A stretch of DNA of 64,000 bases, taken from positions 47,789 through 111,788 of the forward strand of contig CAYWVD010000002.1 of assembly GCA_964461915.1 (NCBI GenBank), written 5' to 3'. The position numbers and the translations under genes are program-made. The notes beneath the pieces were generated by a model, which had not been told where the DNA came from, searched no databases, and saw only the letters and a program-made list of their open reading frames with translations. Positions within the stretch are counted from its first letter, which is position 1. Each line of letters opens with the position of its first letter. This DNA comes from an uncultured Candidatus Saccharibacteria bacterium. Its GTDB lineage: Bacteria > Patescibacteriota > Dojkabacteria > B142 > OLB20. This document shows, piece by piece, positions 54,617 to 64,000 of the stretch.

Positions 54617-54895
54617 ATGAAAAAGAAAAATCTTATTAAATACTTAGTTGCCTTTGTCTTAGTGTTTATCTCTAACTTTGGAGTTGTTTCAGCTGGCAGC
54701 GCTTTGCCAACAATGATCCTTCTGTATGGAATGCAACCAACTTATGTACCGGTTAACGAAGGCATACTACAACTAGTTCAATTTAGATTATTTATCTTCT
54801 TATTCTTTATAGCCTCACTCATCACGGGAGTAGTTGTTTTCTTTACGCGTAAATACAAAAGTAACAATAAAAAGAATGCTAAAAAAAATCCTTAA
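54617..54895 (+). CDS. Small membrane-anchored peptide, paralog B
   Basis: 92 aa with the same architecture as 54337..54609 (LLYGMQPTYVPV, FLFFIASLITGVVVFF, and a KK tail). Confidence 0.5.
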   Translation: MKKKNLIKYLVAFVLVFISNFGVVSAGSALPTMILLYGMQPTYVPVNEGILQLVQFRLFIFLFFIASLITGVVVFFTRKYKSNNKKNAKKNP

Positions 54896-55949
54896 ACTCG
54901 GGAGACAAAAACTCTGGACAGTCCACAGAGACTTAATAATTGACAAACACGATTTAAGTTATCTGTTTTGGGAAGCTACCCTTAATTGTAACTTCCGTTG
55001 TAAACATTGTGGAAGTCGCGCAGGAGAAAAAGTTTTCAAAGAAGTCGTTTCAACTGAAAAAATTAAGGAAGCATTTTTGGATGTCTCAAAGAACTTTGAA
55101 GCCAAAACAATAAATATTGCTGTAACTGGCGGTGAACCGCTTTTAAGAAAGGATCTTTTCGAAGTCATGAAATATGCAAGATCCCTTGGATTCCACTGGG
55201 GAATGGTTTCTAATGGCTTTCTTTGGACCGAAGAATTTATTGAAAAAGCTAAAGACGCAGGAATGGAAACAATTGATATAAGTATTGACGGGATTGGTCA
55301 AATACATGATGAATTCAGAAATACAAAAGACGCTTATAAAAGAGCGATTAATGCCGTTAAACTATTAGCAAAAGGCCAATTCTTAAAACACCTTCGGATC
55401 TCTACGACTGTTCACAAAAAAAATATCGATTCTTTAGAATATATGTACAATGAATTTAAAAATTTAGGAATTACCGGCTGGAGACTCATCCATGTTGATC
55501 CAATAGGCAGAGGTTTTTGCAATAAAGAAATTCTATTATCAAAGGACGAAACTATCAAAATGCTTGATTTTATTGTAAAAAAAAGAAAAGAAAAATCGCC
55601 CGTCAAATTAAGCACAAGCTGTGCGCACTTTCTTGGAGAAGACTACGAAGACGAAGTAAGAGATCATTTCTTTTTTTGCGCAACAGGAATAAATGTTGGA
55701 AGCATCCTACATAATGGAGACATTTTTGTTTGTCCGAATGTTCCAAGACGTAAAGAATATATCCAAGGCAATATATTAAAAGATTCTTTCTCTGAAATTT
55801 GGAATAACAAATTTCAAATTTTCCGGGATAAAAATCGTTTATTAAATGATAAATGTAAAGACTGTGAGCACTGGGAAGAGTGTTTAGGTGGAGCTTTCCA
55901 CACCTTTGACCCCGACGATAAAAAACAACAAGTTTGCTTGATGGATTAG
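54876..55949 (+). CDS. Radical SAM enzyme with a C-terminal SPASM domain
   Basis: CNFRCKHCGS is the Cx3Cx2C motif near the N-terminus. The C-terminal Cys cluster (CAHF...FFFCATG...FVCPN...CKDCEHWEECLGGAFH) is typical of SPASM/twitch auxiliary clusters. The start is taken at MLKKIL. Confidence 0.8.
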   Translation: MLKKILKLGRQKLWTVHRDLIIDKHDLSYLFWEATLNCNFRCKHCGSRAGEKVFKEVVSTEKIKEAFLDVSKNFEAKTINIAVTGGEPLLRKDLFEVMKYARSLGFHWGMVSNGFLWTEEFIEKAKDAGMETIDISIDGIGQIHDEFRNTKDAYKRAINAVKLLAKGQFLKHLRISTTVHKKNIDSLEYMYNEFKNLGITGWRLIHVDPIGRGFCNKEILLSKDETIKMLDFIVKKRKEKSPVKLSTSCAHFLGEDYEDEVRDHFFFCATGINVGSILHNGDIFVCPNVPRRKEYIQGNILKDSFSEIWNNKFQIFRDKNRLLNDKCKDCEHWEECLGGAFHTFDPDDKKQQVCLMD

Positions 55950-55951
55950 TT

Positions 55952-57373
55952 CTAATTAGATTTAGATTTTTTTGCATCGATGCGTTGATCGGTAGTTATT
56001 TTTTGAGTAAAGAATCTTTGTTGAGGGTCTAGATTAGGAGGCTTCCCCATTGATAAAAGAGCCTCGTCAGTTAAATAATATGTAACAGAAAAACTCTGTG
56101 GAGATTCTAAAAATACTTTAAGATCGTTAACTAATTTTTGCAACCTTTCTATACCCAAACTTGTTCCTGCTAGTTCAAAGGTATTAGAAAAATTAGCGAC
56201 TGGAATAACATCTTCACCCTGTTTCGATGGCAAAGAAATCTGAAAATAACTTAGGGTTACACTCTCATTATCAATATTATTTAAGCGTTCAGTTCTTTCT
56301 ACAAACTTGATATAAAACGACGGCTTTTCAGGATCTTTGCTTGGTACTTCAATTGTCATTATTCCACGCATATTAGGGATACTCTCTTGAATTTTACTTT
56401 TTAATATACTCAGTAGATCCATCACTTCAAAATTTATTTCAGCAGGAATTACAGAAAAATTTTTTCCTTCTCTTCCTGGAATACCAACTTCAATTCCTTC
56501 TGTCACATCAACTATTTTTTTGTCAGCAAAAACCCTTCCCATTAATAAAAATCCTAACCTATCACTTAATCGATAATCTTCTATTGGTGGCTTTCTATCA
56601 GACACTGCTTCATTTACCGGTATTGGACTTGCTGAAAGTTTAATTTTATTCGTACCATTTATACCTGTTAATGTTCCCGAATATCTACTCAAAACAAACG
56701 GTTTCTTACCAGGGGAGATAGCTTGTACTGATAATGTGACCTCATTACTAGCACTTTCAGTAATCACAACCTCGGTAGCACTAAACTCAACTAACAAATC
56801 ATCATGAAATTGTAAATGTGAATTTGGAATAAAAAAACGACTTTCATACTTCTCTGGTTCTTTTGTATTTGGATTGATGTTCATTACCTGTCTAATTGAG
56901 AAGCCATCGCCTAGGTCGGTATCTCTGACAATAGATAGTATCGGCCTTTTCCTTACAGGCCCAACTAAATTAAATGTTATCGATTCCAAATTGGGGTCTT
57001 CTGGAACTAATGTTATCCCATAACCATTGTTTGTAAGATAGCGTTTATATTTTATATCACCAATATCAACCACGCTGACCTCTTGGACATTACCATTAGG
57101 GCTATTTCCATCCTGAAATTCCTTTACTCCAAAACCATTTTCCAAATAAGAAAAGTTAGCAAGTAATTGTCCACTTGTATCTATAGACTCAAACAATCCT
57201 TTATATTGAGTAATATCTCTTCTAAATAAACCTCCTGGGACAGTGGGAATTATATCACCCAGGGGTTTTCCACTTACTAAATCTATTAAAGGTAAATTAT
57301 CCTGAATAGGAGAAACATACTCTGTTGAAAGTCTTGCATCAACTACACCTTCAATATTTATTGGTTGAATCAT
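55952..57373 (-). CDS. Hypothetical soluble 473-aa protein
   Basis: A long ORF with no TM, no signal peptide and no motif I can name. Confidence 0.5.
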   Translation of the reverse strand: MIQPINIEGVVDARLSTEYVSPIQDNLPLIDLVSGKPLGDIIPTVPGGLFRRDITQYKGLFESIDTSGQLLANFSYLENGFGVKEFQDGNSPNGNVQEVSVVDIGDIKYKRYLTNNGYGITLVPEDPNLESITFNLVGPVRKRPILSIVRDTDLGDGFSIRQVMNINPNTKEPEKYESRFFIPNSHLQFHDDLLVEFSATEVVITESASNEVTLSVQAISPGKKPFVLSRYSGTLTGINGTNKIKLSASPIPVNEAVSDRKPPIEDYRLSDRLGFLLMGRVFADKKIVDVTEGIEVGIPGREGKNFSVIPAEINFEVMDLLSILKSKIQESIPNMRGIMTIEVPSKDPEKPSFYIKFVERTERLNNIDNESVTLSYFQISLPSKQGEDVIPVANFSNTFELAGTSLGIERLQKLVNDLKVFLESPQSFSVTYYLTDEALLSMGKPPNLDPQQRFFTQKITTDQRIDAKKSKSN

Positions 57374-57413
57374 GTTTTCTGTATTGCGTTTTTAAACCAA
57401 TCTGATTGATTTA

Positions 57414-57941
57414 CTACCACAATTGGGGCCAAATTATCGCATCTAGTACCAATGTATGAAAGGTAAACCAAATCATAGAAATCAATGCTGAATAATAGAA
57501 AAAGCCCTTTGTCTTTGGAGCTGTCTTCCATAAAACAATTGCAACACCAAATGAAGCAAGCCCAACTATGGCAAGTACTAGCCTAATTGCTACCCACAAC
57601 AATGGTGATGGATTTGCGACCATCAGATTTACTAATGGCATCCAAAGAGCCGATGCTCCAAGGATTAAGGAAAATAATATCAATATCATCTTTTCGCTAT
57701 ACTTGAATTCTCTTGAAAACCTTTTTCCGGTAAGATTTGACATTATATAGCCAAAAAAGACGAAATATCCAACTGCGCAAACCAACATTGACATTGTATA
57801 TACTGGACGGATATTCTCAGGAACCCCACCCCATAAGACTTCTACTCCACTACCACCCTGGAGCCCAAGATAGTAACTACCTAGTACCAAAATTCCACCG
57901 ACAATATTTATTGCCAAGAAAATCTTTTGATTTAACTTCAT
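57414..57941 (-). CDS. Hypothetical 4-5 TM membrane protein
   Basis: 175 aa, hydrophobic. Confidence 0.5.
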   Translation of the reverse strand: MKLNQKIFLAINIVGGILVLGSYYLGLQGGSGVEVLWGGVPENIRPVYTMSMLVCAVGYFVFFGYIMSNLTGKRFSREFKYSEKMILILFSLILGASALWMPLVNLMVANPSPLLWVAIRLVLAIVGLASFGVAIVLWKTAPKTKGFFYYSALISMIWFTFHTLVLDAIIWPQLW

Positions 57942-58006
57942 TTTTAAATTGTTTAAAAATTTAAGGTCTTAGAGTTCCTCCAAAAACCTGCCATGCTAGC
58001 AAAGAT

Positions 58007-58190
58007 TTAGCGACCAAACTTAAGATTATATAAACACGTTCTCCAAAAAGGTAGTCCTTCCAGGGACCAATCTTTTTGTACTGAAGAACCATATTTACGG
58101 CAAATATAAATTCCAGATGCATTATTATTCACATATTCACCCGTAAAAGGCGCTTCAGTGCCTTTATCAATTATTACTCTTTTTTCTTCC
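58007..58190 (-). pseudogene. msrB: Truncated N-terminal remnant of a methionine sulfoxide reductase B (MsrB/SelR) gene
   Basis: [33 protein letters not shown]...KDWSLEGLPFW matches the MsrB N-terminus (LTPEEY.VtrekGTErpFtGey...GiYvC...KFdSGtGWPSF). It stops about 70 aa short of the catalytic C-terminal Cys. The upstream part of the listed ORF runs into a GC-rich, non-coding-looking element. Confidence 0.45.
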
Positions 58191-58235
58191 GGAGTTAGTT
58201 GATTCATTAATTTTATTGTTAAATCTACGGAACAC

Positions 58236-58392
58236 CCGTCCGGGTTCCAGCCACTCTCGTGCCTTTTCGACTGCACTTCGTTTGTCTCAAAGACAAGATC
58301 GGAAGGGCGCCTTAGCAGGCATCCCTCCGTGTAACGCTCAACTTCGTTACACTCGTTTCGCTAACACGGGACAGCTGGGTCTGGAACCCAGA
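58236..58392. ncRNA. GC-rich, highly structured ~160-nt element (candidate ncRNA or riboswitch; strand undetermined)
   Basis: Its GC stands out from the AT-rich flanks. A terminal 9-bp helix (GGGTTCCAG at 58241-58249 pairs with CTGGAACCC at 58380-58388), then CCAGC/GCTGG and CGTG/CACG extensions. Internal hairpins include GTGTAACG-CTCAACTT-CGTTACAC, TTGTCT-CAA-AGACAA and CGGAAGGG...CCCTCCG. The ORFs overlapping it on both strands look spurious. Confidence 0.35.
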
Positions 58393-58498
58393 TGCCACTA
58401 GACAAATTATACTATCAGCGGGAAAATGAGACAAATGAGACAGTATAAAAAAGGATAAGTTTATGTCTCATTTTATTAACAACGTCCTGTAATGTTTA

Positions 58499-59110
58499 AT
58501 GATGAAAACCATATTATTTGCAACTACAAATAAGAATAAAATTGCTAGACTTAAGAACTTTATCCAAAACGATAAGTTAAACATAATTTCTTTGGATGAG
58601 CTAGGTTATCATATTAATGAACCAGAGGAATCTGGAAGTACCCCTAGTCAAATAGCTGCAAATAAAGCGCTTTACTATTGGAGCAAACTTAAAGTAAAAA
58701 TACCAGTTTTGGCGCAGGACGACACAATCGAATTCCTGGGTGTTAAGGAATTGGCAGGCAAGAGGCTGAGTATAAAGACCCCAGTTGTAAAAGAATATGG
58801 GGAATTTAATGATGAAAACGCAATAAAGTTTTATACATCAATCGCGAATAAATATGGAGGAGAGATAAAAATGAGGTTTAATTATGGGTTTGCGATATGT
58901 GTTGATGGAAAGGCGAAGTCCAGAAAAGCAGTTTTGAATTGCAAATTGGTAAATCAAGTAAGCAAAATCATCGATCCGGGATATTTCTTAACATCAATTA
59001 TGAGAGTAGAAATTGATAATAAGATAGTTTTTTATAGTGAACTCAGCCTGGATCAACAAGCTAGAATAGACAATAGCCTAGCACGAGCTGTCTCATTTCT
59101 TCTTAAGTAG
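58499..59110 (+). CDS. Ham1/RdgB-family non-canonical NTP pyrophosphatase-like protein
   Basis: ILFATTNKNKIARL matches Ham1 (vfaTgNkgKlrEf), and PSQIAANKALYYW...PVLAQDDTIEF matches the Ham1 substrate-binding block. Confidence 0.55.
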   Translation: MMKTILFATTNKNKIARLKNFIQNDKLNIISLDELGYHINEPEESGSTPSQIAANKALYYWSKLKVKIPVLAQDDTIEFLGVKELAGKRLSIKTPVVKEYGEFNDENAIKFYTSIANKYGGEIKMRFNYGFAICVDGKAKSRKAVLNCKLVNQVSKIIDPGYFLTSIMRVEIDNKIVFYSELSLDQQARIDNSLARAVSFLLK

Positions 59111-59206
59111 ATATCCTCAATAATGACTAATTGTATTCAAATACAATGCGATCCATTAACAATATGGTATTAATGTAGTACAATTCCTGCAATTTATTAC
59201 ATATCG

Positions 59207-59653
59207 ATGAGTATGGAAAACAACAAGATTTATTCGGTAATTGTAAACGCCGTTGTTGAAAAAGATGGCAAAATATTGTTATCACAACGTAGTTTGAGTG
59301 AGGCTCATGAACCGGGGAAATGGACAATCCCGGGTGGTAAAGTAGAAAATTCACCAAATGAAGAGGAAATAAAAAATATTATCGAGAAAACCTGTGCCAG
59401 AGAAGTTATAGAAGAAGTTGGAGTAGAAATTGAGGATGATATTAAGTTAATAGCAAATAACACATTTAAAAGATCAAACGGACAAATGGTTCTTGCACTT
59501 GTATTTTTATGTAAATATAAATCAGGAGAAGCAAAAGCTCTGGAAGACACAAATGCAGTTGCATGGGTAATACGAAGTGAATTAGACAATTATGATTTCC
59601 CACCAAATGTTAAAGAATATGTTGAATCTGGTTTTGCTGAATTAACAAAATGA
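59207..59653 (+). CDS. NUDIX hydrolase
   Basis: The Nudix box is GGKVENSPNEEEIKNIIEKTCAREVIEEVGV (GX5EX7REUXEEXGU). Confidence 0.85.
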   Translation: MSMENNKIYSVIVNAVVEKDGKILLSQRSLSEAHEPGKWTIPGGKVENSPNEEEIKNIIEKTCAREVIEEVGVEIEDDIKLIANNTFKRSNGQMVLALVFLCKYKSGEAKALEDTNAVAWVIRSELDNYDFPPNVKEYVESGFAELTK

Positions 59654-59772
59654 GTGGAGCATATACTGGTGAAAATGCCCAAAATTATCATCAAACAAAT
59701 GGGAAGTTGATATTTTTGAATCCGGCGATAGAAAGGGCTATACCAAATATCGGACACGGTAAGGAGAGGGAT

Positions 59773-59802
59773 GGGTCTTGCAGGACTTTCGATGATTTGG
59801 CG
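59773..59802. repeat. 30-nt exact direct repeat, copy 1 (GGGTCTTGCAGGACTTTCGATGATTTGGCG), with ~20 nt of further imperfect similarity upstream
   Basis: Identical to 61601..61630. Directly beside it (59803-59835, minus strand) is a degenerate tRNA 3'-end-like segment GGTTCCAGACTCGGGTATCCCGCCA. Confidence 0.7.
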
Positions 59803-59847
59803 GGATACCCGAGTCTGGAACCGTAGTTACTTCAAATATTATTTGAA

Positions 59848-61443
59848 ATGGGTTATCTTTATTATATCTATCTATTATACCTTTTTAAAATGGATGTTCA
59901 TAATTTTATAAAAAATCCTCTAAACAGGAAGTGGCTTATTGCAGGAGGGGTCCTCGTGGGATTAATTATAATATTAGTTATAGTAGTTATTACTCTGAAC
60001 ATAGTAAATAGAAATAGTAGTAATAGTAATACTAGCGGGTCATTACCCCTTGAAGGATTAGGGGATGATTCTGATTCAGCCTTAACAAGGCTAACTCAAA
60101 AATATGACCTTTTGGAAAATGAACCAACTTATGATCTTTACGGGGAAGTTGGTTATCAGGGAACAGATGCTTCTTATGCTGCTGTACAAACACAATCAGA
60201 CTTTAGTCCGGAATCTGAGGATTGTTATCCCTCACATGTTGCAACCTGCCTCAATTTAGGTAGAGAAAAGACAGTTATGCCAAATCATTCGACAGTAAAC
60301 ATTAACGCTTCCAGTTATGTAAAAAGTTTTGATGAAAAATCAGGCTTACCTGATGGGCTTCCCATGGAGCTTAATGCTTATGCGCTTCTGCCGGAGGGAT
60401 CATTGGTTGCGTTATCAGGCACCAAAGCTCAGTTTAATTTTTATGATAATGAAACAAGGGTAGTACAAATGTCGGGATCGGCATATTATCGTGTAAAACC
60501 TCAGGAAAAAGGAAAGGTGTTTACCATTCAAGCCGGAGACAGGCTGATAGAGGTAGATAATGCGGAAGTGTATATTGAAGTGTCTTATAACAAAGAAGAT
60601 ACTCTTGCCCAAACCACTATATTTAACAATCAAAAAGTCGGAGTTGATATTAGCAAGGAGGAATATGAACAAAAAGCAGGAGAATCAAGATCCAAAATCT
60701 ATGATGTGCTTATTTACGTAACTTCGGGCAGCTCGAAGCTTTATTCAAGGGCGGATAAAAATACTGTTTTAACTGAGCTCACTGAAGGAAACCCCTACTC
60801 AATGTTTAAATTTAAAGACTATGGTAAAAGAGGTGCGTTTGAGTCTTCACAAGAGGAATCTGACGGATCTAGAAAAGGCCTGGCAAGTAATGACAGTTTC
60901 TTGAATCATTTAAACTTTTCAATGGTAAATTATGGCTTGGGAAACTTTAGTAATGTATCCCAGGAAGACCTGGTCAAAATGCTATTAATTAATTTCGATA
61001 CTGTTGAACTGCAAGCGACTAGATATGCTTTATGGTACAGGAAAGATTTGGAGGACTTGTCGCAGCAGTGGAATACTCTGGTCCAAAAGATGAGTTCCTG
61101 CAACCCCGGCTGGTATAAAACTTCCACCGGAGGATGCTGTCCGGATGGATTTGCCAGTGATCCCACAACCAAAACCTGTACTAAAACAACATATTATTAT
61201 TATTGTGATGCAGGCTACACCTTAGGCTCTGATAATAAATGTTATTCCCAGGATAAATCAAGGACACAAACCCCAACATATAATCCGGGAACAGGAGCTG
61301 GTGGCGGACTCTGTGTCGATAAGAGTAAACCCGCTTCATTCCAGTTATGCAAAATGGGAACCAGTGTTGGGACAGCAAAGATGAGCGGTTCTAAATGTTG
61401 TTTTAATGAGGTAGCATCGCCTACTTTAGAATCTATTAAGTAG
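59848..61443 (+). CDS. Membrane-anchored (type II) protein with a Cys-rich C-terminal region; the only gene between the two direct repeats
   Basis: It has an N-terminal TM (WLIAGGVLVGLIIILVIVVITL) and a C-terminal ~110 aa with 14 or more Cys (CCPDGF...YYYYCDAGY...CKMG...CCFNE). Local GC is slightly above the window average. Confidence 0.55.
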   Translation: MGYLYYIYLLYLFKMDVHNFIKNPLNRKWLIAGGVLVGLIIILVIVVITLNIVNRNSSNSNTSGSLPLEGLGDDSDSALTRLTQKYDLLENEPTYDLYGEVGYQGTDASYAAVQTQSDFSPESEDCYPSHVATCLNLGREKTVMPNHSTVNINASSYVKSFDEKSGLPDGLPMELNAYALLPEGSLVALSGTKAQFNFYDNETRVVQMSGSAYYRVKPQEKGKVFTIQAGDRLIEVDNAEVYIEVSYNKEDTLAQTTIFNNQKVGVDISKEEYEQKAGESRSKIYDVLIYVTSGSSKLYSRADKNTVLTELTEGNPYSMFKFKDYGKRGAFESSQEESDGSRKGLASNDSFLNHLNFSMVNYGLGNFSNVSQEDLVKMLLINFDTVELQATRYALWYRKDLEDLSQQWNTLVQKMSSCNPGWYKTSTGGCCPDGFASDPTTKTCTKTTYYYYCDAGYTLGSDNKCYSQDKSRTQTPTYNPGTGAGGGLCVDKSKPASFQLCKMGTSVGTAKMSGSKCCFNEVASPTLESIK

Positions 61444-61600
61444 TTGAGGGAAATAAGAATATCCTTTTATTAGATACAGGATAATGATCCCTTGGGTGGA
61501 TTTTGATGTTTTTCACCTCTCCAGGCTATAGTTTGAGTTATGGGGTAATTCGAGTCCCCAATCCGCCAGGGACTTAAGCATTCTCACGGAAGGGGGACGG

Positions 61601-61630
61601 GGGTCTTGCAGGACTTTCGATGATTTGGCG
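61601..61630. repeat. 30-nt exact direct repeat, copy 2, forming the immediate 3' flank of tRNA-Ser on the minus strand
   Basis: Identical to 59773..59802. Its last 5 nt overlap the tRNA 3' end (GCCA). Confidence 0.7.
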
Positions 61631-61715
61631 GAAGGGACAGGATTCGAACCTGCGACCCGATTTCTCGGGTACCGCTTTTCGAGAGCGGCTCTTTCGACCA
61701 CTCAGACACCCTTCC
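61626..61715 (-). tRNA. tRNA-Ser (anticodon CGA), type II with a long variable arm; CCA is encoded
   Basis: Minus strand folds as a cloverleaf: GGAAGGG-TG-TCT-GAGTGGTCGAA-AGA-G-CCGCT-CTCGAAA-AGCGG-[TACCCGAGAAATCGGGT]-CGCAGG-TTCGAAT-CCTGT-CCCTTCC-G-CCA. It has a 7-bp acceptor stem, a TTCGAAT T-loop and anticodon loop CT-CGA-AA. The ORF 61513..61701 overlapping it looks spurious. Confidence 0.85.
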
Positions 61716-61760
61716 TCGTCGTGGCTTTTTAATTATACTATAGAATTATGGGAACTTTAA

Positions 61761-62273
61761 TTATTCTTTGACGAGTTCTTCCACTACTTCTGGTGGTAGT
61801 TCTTCCTCAATAACAGCAGGTAATTCTACAATTGGAATTTCTTTTGCATGCTCGTCAGGTTCTTCGATCTTGTTTCTTATTGGCCCAAACTTTAATCCAT
61901 AGTGAATTATTCCTTTATCTCCATCAACATAAATTCGTCTAAAACAAGCCTGAAGGCGCATTCCATATTTTAAATCTTTGAAGTCAATGTTAACTATTTG
62001 AGTAGTAAGTCTTTCGCCATCGCTTAATTCGATTATTCCAATGATGTATGGAGCATATTCTTCAAATCCTTTATTAGGAGCATACACATTTGTCCAAGTA
62101 ACTAATTTGCCAATTGGGCTATATTCATAAACCTCAAAATCTTCTTGGTGGCATTTGATGCAAGATTTTACTGGGGGATAACTTGTTATCCCGCAATGGA
62201 CGCATTTTGACCCTATTAGTCTGTATCTGTTTTGAAATTTTCGCCAAATTTTTATCGGGCTAGATTGAACCAT
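61761..62273 (-). CDS. DUF35 OB-fold / Zn-ribbon protein (thiolase/HMG-CoA synthase partner) with an acidic C-terminal tail
   Basis: Zn-ribbon CVHCG...CIKCH is followed by an OB-fold segment (GKLVTWTNVYAP...APYIIGIIELSDGERL). The 3' end overlaps the thiolase start in an operon. Confidence 0.8.
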   Translation of the reverse strand: MVQSSPIKIWRKFQNRYRLIGSKCVHCGITSYPPVKSCIKCHQEDFEVYEYSPIGKLVTWTNVYAPNKGFEEYAPYIIGIIELSDGERLTTQIVNIDFKDLKYGMRLQACFRRIYVDGDKGIIHYGLKFGPIRNKIEEPDEHAKEIPIVELPAVIEEELPPEVVEELVKE

Positions 62274-62275
62274 TT

Positions 62276-63418
62276 TTAATTCGAAAATAAATTTATTACT
62301 GTAGTGGCACCACTACCTCCAACATTGTGCGTAAGCCCCCTATGAAGTCTTTTTTTGACCTGTCTTGCGCCAGCAGTCCCAGATAGTTGCATACATATTT
62401 CAATTGCTTGCTTGATACCTGTTGCACCAACTGGATGACCGCATGCTTTTAATCCGCCAGAGACATTTACAGGGAGTTCACCATCTTTATTGAATCTTCC
62501 GTTCCTTAAATCATTTACTGCTTTACCTTGAAGCGAAAATCCAAGATCTTCGTATGCCACAAGTTCAGCAATAGAAAAACAGTCATGAACTTCCGCAATA
62601 TCAATTAGTTTTGGTGTAATATTCAGTTTTCTATAGACTTCTTTACTTGCGATTTTGGCCGAATAAATTGAGGCAATATCTGCTCTATCGTGAAGGGCAA
62701 TTGTGCCAGTGCCAATTTCGGAAGCAACTAATTCGACTGAATGATCGTTTATCTTTTCGCTACTTAGCATGACCGCAGCAGCCCCATCACTTAATGGAGA
62801 GCAATCTAGAAGGCCAAGAGGATCAGATACCATTGTTGCATTTAATACATCTTCAACAGATATTTGTTTTTGAAACTGTGCAATAGGATTAAGCATTGCA
62901 TTTTTATGATTTTTTACACTAATTAAAGCTAAATCTTCCCTTTTAGTTTTAAATCTTCGCATATGGAACCTTGCCATCATTGCGTAAAGGCTTGGGAATG
63001 TGACTCCGTAAAAACCCTCCCATTCTTCGTCTGCCGCCGCAGATAATGCTTGAGTAGCCTGGATTGCATCAAGATCAGTCATTTTCTCAACCCCTATAAC
63101 TAGGACATTTTTATATAATCCGGACACAATTGCATTGAATCCTGCGTTTATTGCTAATGATCCGGATGCACAAGCGCCTTCTACACGAAAAGCAGGTTTG
63201 AAAATTTGAAGTTCAGAAGCTATTAAAGCCCCTAAGTGCTCTTGATTAGTGAATAGTGAACTATTCATATTGGCAACATAGATTGCATCGATCTTTTCGG
63301 GATCGATTCCGGAAGATTTAATGGCTTCAATACCTGCCTTAACCGCGAGTGATCGAAGGTCTTGATCCCATAATTCTCCGAATTTTGTAATTCCCCAACC
63401 TGTAACAAATGTGTTCAT
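62276..63418 (-). CDS. Thiolase (acetyl-CoA C-acetyltransferase, archaeal/SCP-x-like type)
   Basis: The active-site Cys context is VEGACASGSLAIN, and the C-terminus has NVSGGLKACGHPVGATG (thiolase signature). Confidence 0.85.
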   Translation of the reverse strand: MNTFVTGWGITKFGELWDQDLRSLAVKAGIEAIKSSGIDPEKIDAIYVANMNSSLFTNQEHLGALIASELQIFKPAFRVEGACASGSLAINAGFNAIVSGLYKNVLVIGVEKMTDLDAIQATQALSAAADEEWEGFYGVTFPSLYAMMARFHMRRFKTKREDLALISVKNHKNAMLNPIAQFQKQISVEDVLNATMVSDPLGLLDCSPLSDGAAAVMLSSEKINDHSVELVASEIGTGTIALHDRADIASIYSAKIASKEVYRKLNITPKLIDIAEVHDCFSIAELVAYEDLGFSLQGKAVNDLRNGRFNKDGELPVNVSGGLKACGHPVGATGIKQAIEICMQLSGTAGARQVKKRLHRGLTHNVGGSGATTVINLFSN

Positions 63419-63420
63419 GT

Positions 63421-64000
63421 TTAATCGGTATTAATATTGCGCATTAATTTAAGATATTCTGCATAGCTGATGTATTTTTTAAAGCTAAGGAGATCCTCAA
63501 CCTTGTTTAGCTTTGGCAAACTTGTTATATTTTTATTTACTTTAAAAATGAAGGCATCACTACCGGAGCCCGATCCATAAGAACATAATAATATTTTGTC
63601 ATTGGATTTTGCCGAATCAAGTACCGAGGCTAACCCAGTTAATGAACAAGCCGAATATGTATTCCCTAATTCTGGAACAGTAAAGCCTAATTTTAATTGC
63701 TTTGAAGAAACACCTAGCATTTCAGCCACTTTTTTAGGGAAAGCAGCATTAGGCATATGAAATATTACATGGTCAAAATCCTTGATCTTCATTTTGCTTT
63801 CTTCCAGAATCAAATTTACAGCATTAATTATATGTTTGAAATATGCCGGCCCACCGGTAAATCTACCTGCATGTACTGGATAATGTTGAAATTCTCGTCT
63901 CCAAAAATCTGGAGTATCTGATGTGTATGTGGAGGTGAATATTAGTTCTGCAATAATTTCTTTTGGATTACTACCAAGAATAAAAGAAGCGGCCGAAGCA
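63421..64000 (-). CDS. HMG-CoA synthase, archaeal/UPF0219 type (N-terminus beyond the window edge)
   Basis: The frame stays open on the minus strand to position 64000 (...TSDTPDFWRREFQHYPVHAGRFTGGPAYFKHIINAVNLILEESKMKIKDFDHVIFHMPNAAFPKK...). The C-terminus has LLCSYGSGSGSDAF, typical of HMGCS. The ORF-track start at 63813 is an internal TTG. Confidence 0.8.
   Translation of the reverse strand, partial: ASAASFILGSNPKEIIAELIFTSTYTSDTPDFWRREFQHYPVHAGRFTGGPAYFKHIINAVNLILEESKMKIKDFDHVIFHMPNAAFPKKVAEMLGVSSKQLKLGFTVPELGNTYSACSLTGLASVLDSAKSNDKILLCSYGSGSGSDAFIFKVNKNITSLPKLNKVEDLLSFKKYISYAEYLKLMRNINTD

Follow-up and report, generated by a model that had tools for sequence, protein, structure and literature searches.

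What is the 1.8-kb segment that lies between two copies of a short direct repeat at the end of a tRNA-Ser(CGA) gene in an uncultured Candidatus Saccharibacteria bacterium, and how did it come to be there? The question was raised by a 64-kb stretch of contig CAYWVD010000002.1 (the whole stretch analysed, called the window here), in which a first-pass annotation had read the segment as the footprint of an insertion at the 3′ end of the tRNA gene. Here we analysed the segment, its junctions and its relatives in other contigs and assemblies (handles beginning with L). Alleles with an empty site were recovered and the footprint reading holds. The segment, named cassette 1, is a discrete and recently mobile member of a recurrent and previously unnoticed cassette family, which stacks in arrays behind tRNA genes and gives closely related strains different gene content, and it would need a recombinase in trans. 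The reading preferred here, to which we give a probability of about 0.65, is that cassette 1 belongs to a recombinase-less family that inserts site-specifically at the extreme 3′ end of tRNA genes in bacteria of the Candidate Phyla Radiation (CPR)/Patescibacteria type and is moved by an enzyme acting in trans.

The insertion at tRNA-Ser(CGA)

The features which carry the argument are listed below with their window coordinates and strands.

61626..61715, minus strand: tRNA-Ser(CGA), the target gene (ARAGORN; Rfam RF00005, 56.4 bits).
61601..61631, no strand: repeat copy 2, made of CCG (the discriminator and the two acceptor bases before it), CCA and the opening 25 nt of the leader of cassette 1.
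59773..59803, no strand: repeat copy 1, made of CCG from pseudo-end 1, CCA and the opening 25 nt of the leader of cassette 2.
59801..61628, minus strand: cassette 1 (1,828 bp), in tRNA orientation CCA-leader, cargo gene and tRNA-end mimic (from empty-site alleles and from copies behind two other tRNA-Ser genes).
61447..61628, minus strand: leader of cassette 1, conserved and non-coding, with the blocks CAAGAC, CCGT, GCCTGGAG and GAAAA (nhmmer leader profile, E=6e-42).
59890..61443, plus strand: cargo gene, 517 aa (531 aa if started at the upstream ATG, 59848), convergent with the tRNA and the only gene of cassette 1.
59801..59822, minus strand: pseudo-end 1, GGTTCCAGACTCGGGTATCCCG, a 22-nt mimic of the tRNA T-arm/acceptor 3′ end at the distal end of cassette 1.

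The repeat, GGGTCTTGCAGGACTTTCGATGATTTGGCGG, is exact and direct (59773-59803 and 61601-61631) with the spacing of 1828 bp first reported, but its length is 31 nt and not 30. When up to three mismatches were tolerated, only these two matches were found in the 64 kb, and none in 100 shuffles. The tRNA gene beside copy 2 is intact, as had been noted, with G73 at 61629 and an encoded CCA at 61628-61626. Copy 2 had been described as the immediate 3′ flank of this gene, which is right for its 25 nt of trailer, but it also covers the final 6 nt of the tRNA itself (CC, G73 and CCA, 61626-61631). The tRNA share of the repeat is 6/31 nt and the remainder is common leader; other targets repeat only CCGCCA or CCG. 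The match in the window extends to 31 nt because cassette 1 and a second cassette beyond it begin with the same 25-nt leader head, preceded by CCG and CCA. Within the window alone the boundaries of cassette 1 are ambiguous over these 31 identical positions, and they were set at CCG|CCA by means of the family-wide junction table.

Several further observations of the first-pass annotation stand. Beside copy 1, on the minus strand at 59798-59822, lies GGTTCCAGACTCGGGTATCCCG followed by CCA, in the same 22-nt GGTTC...CCG frame as the real T-arm and acceptor end; alignment of the two repeat regions brought out the weaker similarity beyond the repeat, and the GC content of the segment is mildly raised (0.37-0.47 against about 0.35 in the flanks). 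The reading frame at 59848-61443 exists, but gene callers and homologues start inside it, at 59890.

The site was compared among strains through metagenomic contigs encoding an identical neighbouring DUF35 protein, and five allelic states were observed at the one tRNA end. The uninterrupted locus is present in L001 and L004, where tRNA-Ser is followed by one 31-mer and the outer flank of copy 1 (99.3% identical to window 58098-59803 and 98.9% to window 61585-62500), and in other samples in L057, L059, L060 and L065; over these six contigs the identity is 99-100%. The occupied state recurs in L062, an independent assembly which is 100% identical over copy 1, the pseudo-end and the segment start. 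In L003 the tRNA (...CCCTTCCG, with no encoded CCA) is joined straight to TGTTAGCGAAACG..., the sequence found from window 58366 downward and 3.3 kb away in the window. L064 has the same 31-mer followed by a variant pseudo-end, AGTTCCAGACTCGAATGTCCCG, and then unrelated sequence, and L005-L007, L009 and L010 have at tRNA-Ser(CGA) a different trailer and then a TIGR02391-family gene. An assembly chimera was ruled out, as the independent contig L062 crosses the distal junction. The Logan contigs L002 and L058 end precisely at the 31-mer, consistent with the k=31 which we understand the Logan assemblies to use.

The strongest indication of movement comes from copies of the unit elsewhere. A protein 99% identical to the cargo is found in quite different neighbourhoods, and the DNA of window 59798-61654 matches L011 and L012 with 99.1% identity, that of window 59798-61710 matches L018 with 98.4%. 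The unit stands behind one tRNA-Ser(GCT) in L011/L012 and behind another tRNA-Ser(GCT) of different sequence in L018, and the flanks on both sides are unrelated among the three contexts. In all of them it starts directly after the tRNA CCGCCA and ends at ...CTACGGTTCCAGACTCGGG(C/T)ATCCCGCCA. Between the window and L018, 5/1,834 positions differ, none of them in the 1,554-bp coding region, and three of the five are trailer bases next to CCA. Since identical end points occur three times, they do not reflect independent decay of larger elements, and the unit itself has moved recently.

These data change the interpretation of the segment. The first-pass annotation had taken it for a degraded element or cargo remnant, but one 1.83-kb unit, its ends unchanged, recurs in three contexts at 98.4-99.5% identity. 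The tRNA-like stretch at copy 1 had been taken for a decayed end of the host tRNA; it travels with the element to two other tRNA-Ser genes and so belongs to the element, and distinct cassettes carry it in a conserved form, GGTTCCAGAC..(G)T.TCCCG. Nor does the element bring a replacement 3′ end, as had been supposed, for it gives the tRNA only CCA and trailer, with no T-arm or acceptor sequence. It is very unlikely that the segment is the immobile stump of a larger integrase-bearing element which has lost all but one cargo gene. The lack of a recombinase in the segment, the decaying recombinase genes in sibling islands and the older relics at the locus agree with such a history, but it is opposed by the identical boundaries behind three tRNA-Ser genes with unrelated flanks, by the near identity of the copies (the coding regions of the window and L018 being the same), and by the recurrence of leader, FecR-like gene and pseudo-end in another lineage at 44% protein identity.

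Two strain differences were seen close to the array. Alleles differ in the variable arm of tRNA-Ser(CGA) (window 61655-61675) at paired positions that compensate one another, the window and L003 having CCCGAGAAATCGGG where L001 and L004 have CCCGGGAAACCGGG, and therefore the empty-site strains are close relatives of the window strain and not isogenic with it. A second polymorphism adjoins the array (window 56533-58207 against L001 12348-15068): in the window and L003 the MsrB (SelR) open reading frame (ORF) is short or truncated, with a Pfam match to the first 38/116 profile positions, and is followed by ORFs of 175 aa and 473 aa, and L001 has at the same place a full SelR together with PMSR and a gene of 328 aa. 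In L018, too, MsrB comes after the unit.

One gene-finder call overlaps copy 1.

59650..59826, plus strand: ORF of 58 aa (84 aa in empty-site alleles), overlying the cassette-2 leader and antisense to the tRNA in empty alleles; no Pfam match.

The length of this ORF follows the occupied or empty state of the site, and therefore it is most likely not a gene. An integrase split by its own attachment site, in the manner of Sulfolobus spindle-shaped virus (SSV), was considered for it and rejected, as it has no family match and its length tracks the allele.

The cassette family and the position of the crossover

Cassette 1 is not alone behind the tRNA gene. Outward from it lie a second cassette and shorter remains.

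58367..59800, minus strand: cassette 2 (1,434 bp), older, with CCA-leader, NUDIX gene, Ham1-like gene and pseudo-end 2; absent from L003.
59207-59653, plus strand: NUDIX gene in cassette 2 (Pfam; PADLOC PDC-S07 match, E=8e-20).
58499-59110, plus strand: Ham1-like gene in cassette 2 (Pfam).
58367..58388, minus strand: pseudo-end 2, GGTTCCAGACCCAGCTGTCCCG, distal end of cassette 2.
58300..58366, minus strand: putative relic a, 67 nt ending CCCTTCCG, which equals the last 8 nt of the tRNA body; also in L003 (read from sequence).
58228..58299, minus strand: possible relic b, 72 nt ending GGGTGTTCCG; replaced by about 21 nt in L003 (read from sequence).

In L003 the tRNA ...TCCG runs directly onto TGTTAGCG..., which is the window sequence from 58366 downward, and therefore the Ham1-like and NUDIX segment (58367-59800) is a second, older insert. 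Its leader has decayed beyond about 50 nt. Pseudo-end 2 agrees with pseudo-end 1 at 17/25 positions, and together with the three preceding bases it forms a clean T-arm-like hairpin of 5 bp and 7 nt (CTGGG TTCCAGA CCCAG). Relic a is probably the trace of an older event; relic b may be a further one, which is said with low confidence.

In the orientation of the tRNA all cassettes have one plan, namely CCA with a conserved non-coding leader of about 180 nt, then the cargo and then a 22-nt tRNA-end mimic ending in CCCG, with sizes of about 1.4-2.6 kb. The leader is conserved across islands with differing cargo: the window leader matches that of L078 with z=10.4 over dinucleotide shuffles and those of L005 and L071 with z=4.5-7.2. 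A leader profile built with nhmmer from seven leaders found further ones outside its training set (three in L019, two in L020, a third in L021 and one in L076; E 1e-7 to 1e-26), and in front of each full-length match examined stand 22 nt from a real tRNA end or from a mimic, and then CCA. The motif GGTTC.A..C(8-14)CCG occurs three times in the 64 kb, every time at the tRNA-Ser(CGA) locus, on the tRNA strand and with a length of 22 nt, and GTTCCAGAC, for which 3.3 occurrences are expected in the 874 kb analysed, was found 22 times, without exception on the tRNA strand and at the end or leader of a cassette.

Tandem arrays are formed by two cassettes and relics in the window, and arrays were found also in L019, L020 and L021. 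In L019, a Dojkabacteria assembly, tRNA-Asp is followed by a leader, a convergent FecR-like gene (its protein 44% identical in amino acids to the window cargo), a pseudo-end, a leader, another gene, a pseudo-end and a leader. In L021 three cassettes behind tRNA-Asp carry a Peptidase_S51 gene, a Fic/DOC-HTH gene and a FecR-like gene. The targets seen are tRNA-Ser (CGA, GCT and GGA) and tRNA-Asp. Both junctions of cassette 1 fit the family pattern, and no recombination or transfer genes lie between them.

A dispersed repeat family unrelated to tRNAs was considered and rejected: the repeats are always associated with a tRNA, and each motif occurrence sits at a tRNA-anchored array. A structured RNA in the trailer, leader or copy 1 was likewise rejected: with E values of up to 10 allowed, Rfam still matched nothing other than the tRNA, and copy 1 falls within no known RNA family. 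RNAalifold gave no fold common to the leaders (-2.1 kcal/mol for a set of 5 and 0 pairs for a set of 11), and the leader seems to be a DNA-level module. Some leaders (alignment columns 51-66; L019, L020, L021) contain a short, local hairpin with apparent covariation between subtypes, ACCCTTATGGGG against AAGGTTGTTAAACCTT; it is missing from the window leader and is not called by RNAalifold.

The point of exchange can be placed closely from the junctions. Real tRNA ends read TCCG|CCA in 6/6 cases and distinct pseudo-ends read CCCG|CCA in 8/8, and the T/C base that differs stays with the element, which puts the exchange to its right. When cassette 2 is compared with L003, the tRNA reads ...TCCG|TGTT and the pseudo-end ...CCCG|TGTT; since TGTT follows both, the exchange lies to the left of CCA. 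On these alignments the crossover is confined to the 3-bp window CCG. In L018 and L011 the two ends of the unit have only CCGCCA in common.

The lengths of these identities bear on a simpler account, in which there is no dedicated system and homologous recombination or segmental duplication between similar trailers shuffles genes at the tRNA flank. The 31 identical nt at the two window junctions favour it, as do the mosaic neighbourhood between strains and the host-type bases beside CCA at both junctions, which would be reached more easily by homologous exchange or gene conversion. But the identities of CCGCCA in L018 and L011 and of CCG in cassette 2 and L003 are far too short for it, the junctions are base-precise at the same position in Ser(CGA), Ser(GCT), Ser(GGA) and Asp genes, and the conserved pseudo-end and leader imply recognised sites. 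We consider this account very unlikely.

Under site-specific insertion by an enzyme in trans, the mimic of a circular or donor form would be joined to the CCA-leader, which would create an attachment site resembling a tRNA 3′ end and its trailer, with the predicted junction ...CTACGGTTCCAGACTCGGGTATCCCG|CCA(A/T)(A/T)T(C/G)ATCGAAAGTCCTGCAAGACCCCCGTCCCCC. Recombination of this site with a real tRNA end, with the crossover inside CCG, would leave the tRNA intact and provide it with an encoded CCA. Each new cassette would land next to the tRNA and shift the older ones outward, so that tandem arrays would grow; in the window, cassette 1 with its FecR-like gene was inserted beside the older cassette 2 with Ham1 and NUDIX genes. 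The enzyme would be a large serine recombinase from sibling islands at the same tRNA sites, and mobilisation might be direct or might proceed by accretion with an autonomous neighbour, as proposed for cis-mobilizable elements (CIMEs). The circular intermediate, the action in trans and the identity of the recombinase are the steps which we infer.

The proposed enzyme in trans

The first-pass annotation had seen no integrase in the segment, which is right, and no recombinase domain was found in any ORF of at least 150 aa in the 64-kb window. There is likewise none among the annotated genes of L001, L011, L018 and L021, and no tyrosine recombinase or IntI platform lies beside any array examined. 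Large serine recombinases at an island boundary are absent from both window cassettes and occur only in sibling loci (L078 and L079/L080, and truncated in L070-L077). The TIGR02391 island that occupies tRNA-Ser(CGA) in L005 has a relative (78% nucleotide identity) behind tRNA-Ser(GCT) in L070-L075, where the next gene is a large serine recombinase without its catalytic domain; L077 has a further truncated copy. Intact relatives with Resolvase, Recombinase and Zn_ribbon_recom domains are present in L078 (62% identity, 440 aa) and in L079/L080 (47%, 457 aa), in islands of 2-3 kb directly 3′ of tRNA-Ser(GGA), where they read toward the tRNA. At the recombinase loci the family leader, GTTCCAGAC or both lie between the tRNA and the recombinase gene. 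The 3-bp identity window at the crossover suits the 2-bp crossover of a serine recombinase better than the 6-8-bp overlap of a tyrosine enzyme and points to a large serine recombinase. The DNA evidence constrains the mechanism well; for the enzyme, a large serine recombinase of the sibling-island clade is favoured and is not proven.

Alternatively, the gene for the trans-acting enzyme might lie elsewhere in the genome or on a helper element and specify a tyrosine integrase or some other recombinase, with the serine islands being unrelated tenants of the same hotspot. The CCGCCA common to the L018, L011 and window junctions is, at 6 bp, a plausible tyrosine overlap, and the serine-recombinase islands have no canonical pseudo-end at their distal boundary; moreover, in tycheposons at Prochlorococcus tRNA genes 910/937 of the integrases are of tyrosine type (bioRxiv 10.1101/2020.12.28.424599). 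However, no tyrosine integrase was seen in any annotated neighbourhood, and five loci have a serine recombinase gene directly against the tRNA 3′ end. The junctions of cassette 2 and L003 have only CCG in common, with mismatches on both sides, which is too short for a 6-8-bp overlap and enough for a 2-bp serine crossover. We regard the tyrosine alternative as the main rival, and as rather doubtful.

A set of observations weighs against a trans-acting serine recombinase and simple site-specific insertion. Classically, the targeting of tRNA 3′ ends by means of attachment arms that resemble tRNA is the mark of tyrosine integrases. The recombinase islands have no canonical GGTTCCAGAC...CCCG mimic next to the recombinase gene, so that what links the enzyme to the cassettes is the shared target, the leader or motif, and co-occurrence; and the recombinase copies closest to the species of the window (L072, L077) are truncated. 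The inferred attachment sites show no dyad symmetry above shuffled controls. Both 31-mers of the window have the host-type bases AATC beside CCA, where other copies of the unit have TTTG, and one simple crossover with a donor resembling L018 does not account for this pattern, which implies that AATC was present in the donor beforehand or that homogenisation took place between the two copies. Finally, no circular junction, excision product or donor form was found in pattern scans of metagenomes and viruses. The metagenome scan with CCGCCANNNNATCGAAAGTCCTGCAA gave 0 matches, in a collection that evidently does not hold even contig L011, and viral scans for the junction types and the circular form gave 0 or chance-level matches. 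No viral relative of the recombinase was found, and its identity to phage serine integrases is only 22-27%.

A wider extension of the trans-acting reading can be proposed tentatively. It would be an integron-like system of CPR/Patescibacteria, in which the CCA end of tRNA-Ser and tRNA-Asp is the fixed primary site, the mimic and the leader of about 180 nt form a bipartite cassette site, and the large serine recombinase of a few autonomous siblings shuttles cassettes between tRNA genes and genomes. If it were true, it would supply strain-level diversity in surface and defence genes of minimal genomes.

Three side observations concern the recombinases. A more distant large serine recombinase (L081 2703-4222, about 33% identity) has a gene 3′ end that overlaps the 3′ end of tRNA-Gln, and in L082 a recombinase match lies about 0.5 kb from tRNA-Val, which together suggests a wider clade of serine recombinases at tRNA ends. 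In L079 (395-606), just upstream of the intact recombinase gene, there are two similar sequences of about 27 nt, (G)(A/G)TACCGCAAG(G)TTTT.A..AAGTCTAG, about 185 nt apart, and these are possibly attachment-site remnants of that island.

Known systems, cargo and host

The closest precedents are the ssrA islands of Dehalococcoides with their cis-mobilizable elements, and the tycheposons of Prochlorococcus. The Dehalococcoides ssrA genomic islands (ssrA-GIs) lie in tandem, with copies of the transfer-messenger RNA (tmRNA) gene's 3′ end as their borders and a CcrB-like serine recombinase at the boundary (McMurdie et al. 2011, PMC3146451), and 15 of them have no integration module and were proposed to be CIMEs moved by accretion (PMC3146451). 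As in the ssrA-GIs, the units here stand in tandem directly downstream of a tRNA-like gene and are each delimited by its 3′ end in copied or mimicked form. The crossover can likewise be placed from a base that differs consistently between the genuine gene end and the repeats, and in presumed autonomous members a large serine recombinase gene lies at the distal boundary. Unlike them, the cassettes target ordinary tRNA genes (Ser with three anticodons, and Asp) and not tmRNA, their crossover lies at the discriminator/CCA end and not in the T-loop, and they are far smaller, with 1.4-2.6 kb and one or few genes. Every cassette has the conserved leader of about 180 nt, the candidate recombinase is a single protein of 440-457 aa where the ssrA-GIs have a six-gene integration module, and the host is CPR-like.

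With CIMEs (PMC3146451, PMC5704250) the cassettes share attachment-site flanks, the lack of recombination and transfer functions, and a tandem position with related elements at a tRNA-type site; here the serine-recombinase islands occupy the same tRNA-end position and have the leader or GTTCCAGAC in common with the cassettes, with different distal ends. However, CIMEs are seen as decayed integrative and conjugative elements (ICEs) or integrative mobilizable elements (IMEs) mobilised by a neighbouring ICE, while the cassette is itself a recurrent, near-identical entity at several targets, and unlike the CIMEs of streptococcal ICEs it has no conjugative partner in evidence.

Tycheposons (Hackl et al., bioRxiv 10.1101/2020.12.28.424599) resemble the cassettes in their streamlined host genomes, their tRNA targets, the displacement of older integrations by successive ones, the partial tRNAs or remnants that mark the arrays and the adaptive or defence-type cargo. 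Unlike the cassettes, they have their own integrase, often have replication genes and measure several kb or more, and the text consulted describes no conserved leader and no recombinase-less cassette class. Integron gene cassettes are also small, mostly with one to few genes, have no recombinase of their own and each carry a recombination site, and insertion beside a fixed primary site, array growth at one end and an enzyme in trans are further likenesses. Unlike integrons, the arrays described here have no IntI, attI or Pc platform, the cassette site does not fold as an attC hairpin does (its dyad symmetry is no higher than in shuffles and the leader has no consensus fold), cargo genes lie in varying orientations, a tRNA CCA end serves as the primary site and the enzyme is likely to be of another class. 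Classical tRNA-targeted islands and prophages also leave the tRNA intact; they differ in having their own integrase next to the attachment site. What is distinct here is the CCA end of ordinary tRNAs as target, the very small units, the conserved leader, the stereotyped mimic, the very recent move of a recombinase-less unit and the CPR lineage.

The genomes of CPR bacteria are tiny and gene exchange in them is poorly understood, and cassettes hopping between tRNA genes would provide a mechanism for strain-level variation. The cargo covers FecR-like surface protein, NUDIX/Ham1, Fic/DOC, TIGR02391 and HNH genes. Island pipelines that demand more than 5 kb and an integrase gene (as in PMC9580842) would miss such cassettes, and the leader together with the tRNA-end mimic is a simple signature for large-scale surveys of arrays. 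Should these serine recombinases really be specific for the 3′ ends of tRNAs, each would be a compact integrase consisting of a single protein, for which many genomes offer a natural landing site.

The cargo protein of cassette 1 has an N-terminal transmembrane anchor, a beta-rich domain and a C-terminal region with many invariant cysteines. In the AlphaFold2 model (pLDDT, the predicted local distance difference test score, 74.5) the beta-rich domain is confidently modelled and is followed by a long helix, and Foldseek matches this domain to FecR/PupR-type anti-sigma ectodomains with probability 1.0 (PDB 4m0h, 6ovk). The Pfam FecR match is weak and there is no cytoplasmic anti-sigma domain; the cargo is read as a surface-exposed protein. 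A phage or plasmid origin of the cargo was considered and rejected, as tblastn gave no match, and PADLOC gave no defence match for the 517-aa protein. Homologues of the cargo are found in CPR assemblies. One homologue with 45% identity (P0011) is labelled Methanofastidiosum sp. in NCBI; since the other relatives are all CPR, that contig may be mis-binned.

The assemblies that hold relatives of the cargo, the leader and TIGR02391 are labelled Dojkabacteria, Saccharibacteria or Patescibacteria, and therefore the host is most likely a CPR bacterium, as judged from sequence relationships. An archaeal origin, which the thiolase, DUF35 and HMG-CoA synthase genes might suggest, was ruled out by the bacterial genes of the window (RpoB/C, RpoD, FtsZ/A/Q, sortase, MurJ and Mur ligase). 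The genes in question form an HMG-CoA reductase, HMG-CoA synthase, thiolase and DUF35 (OB-fold) cluster at window 61761-64000 (and L001 6563-10513), with related clusters in L067-L069, an arrangement known as the archaeal-type front end of the mevalonate pathway. DUF35 did not serve as an anchor of synteny in more distant relatives, where tRNA-Ser is not conserved at that position.

Genes for house-cleaning of the nucleotide pool recur beside the tRNA sites, namely Ham1/ITPase, NUDIX, MazG, dUTPase and DUF84 NTPase (window 58499-59653, L011 3736-7894, L018 3083-3613 and L079 2909-3421). PDC-S07, which the NUDIX protein of the window matches, is a candidate defence family of PADLOC. Lastly, a radical SAM/SPASM enzyme stands beside two small ORFs at window 54834-55949 and L001 15652-17258 (88 and 92 aa in L001), and the locus may be a peptide-modification cluster like those for ribosomally synthesised and post-translationally modified peptides (RiPPs).

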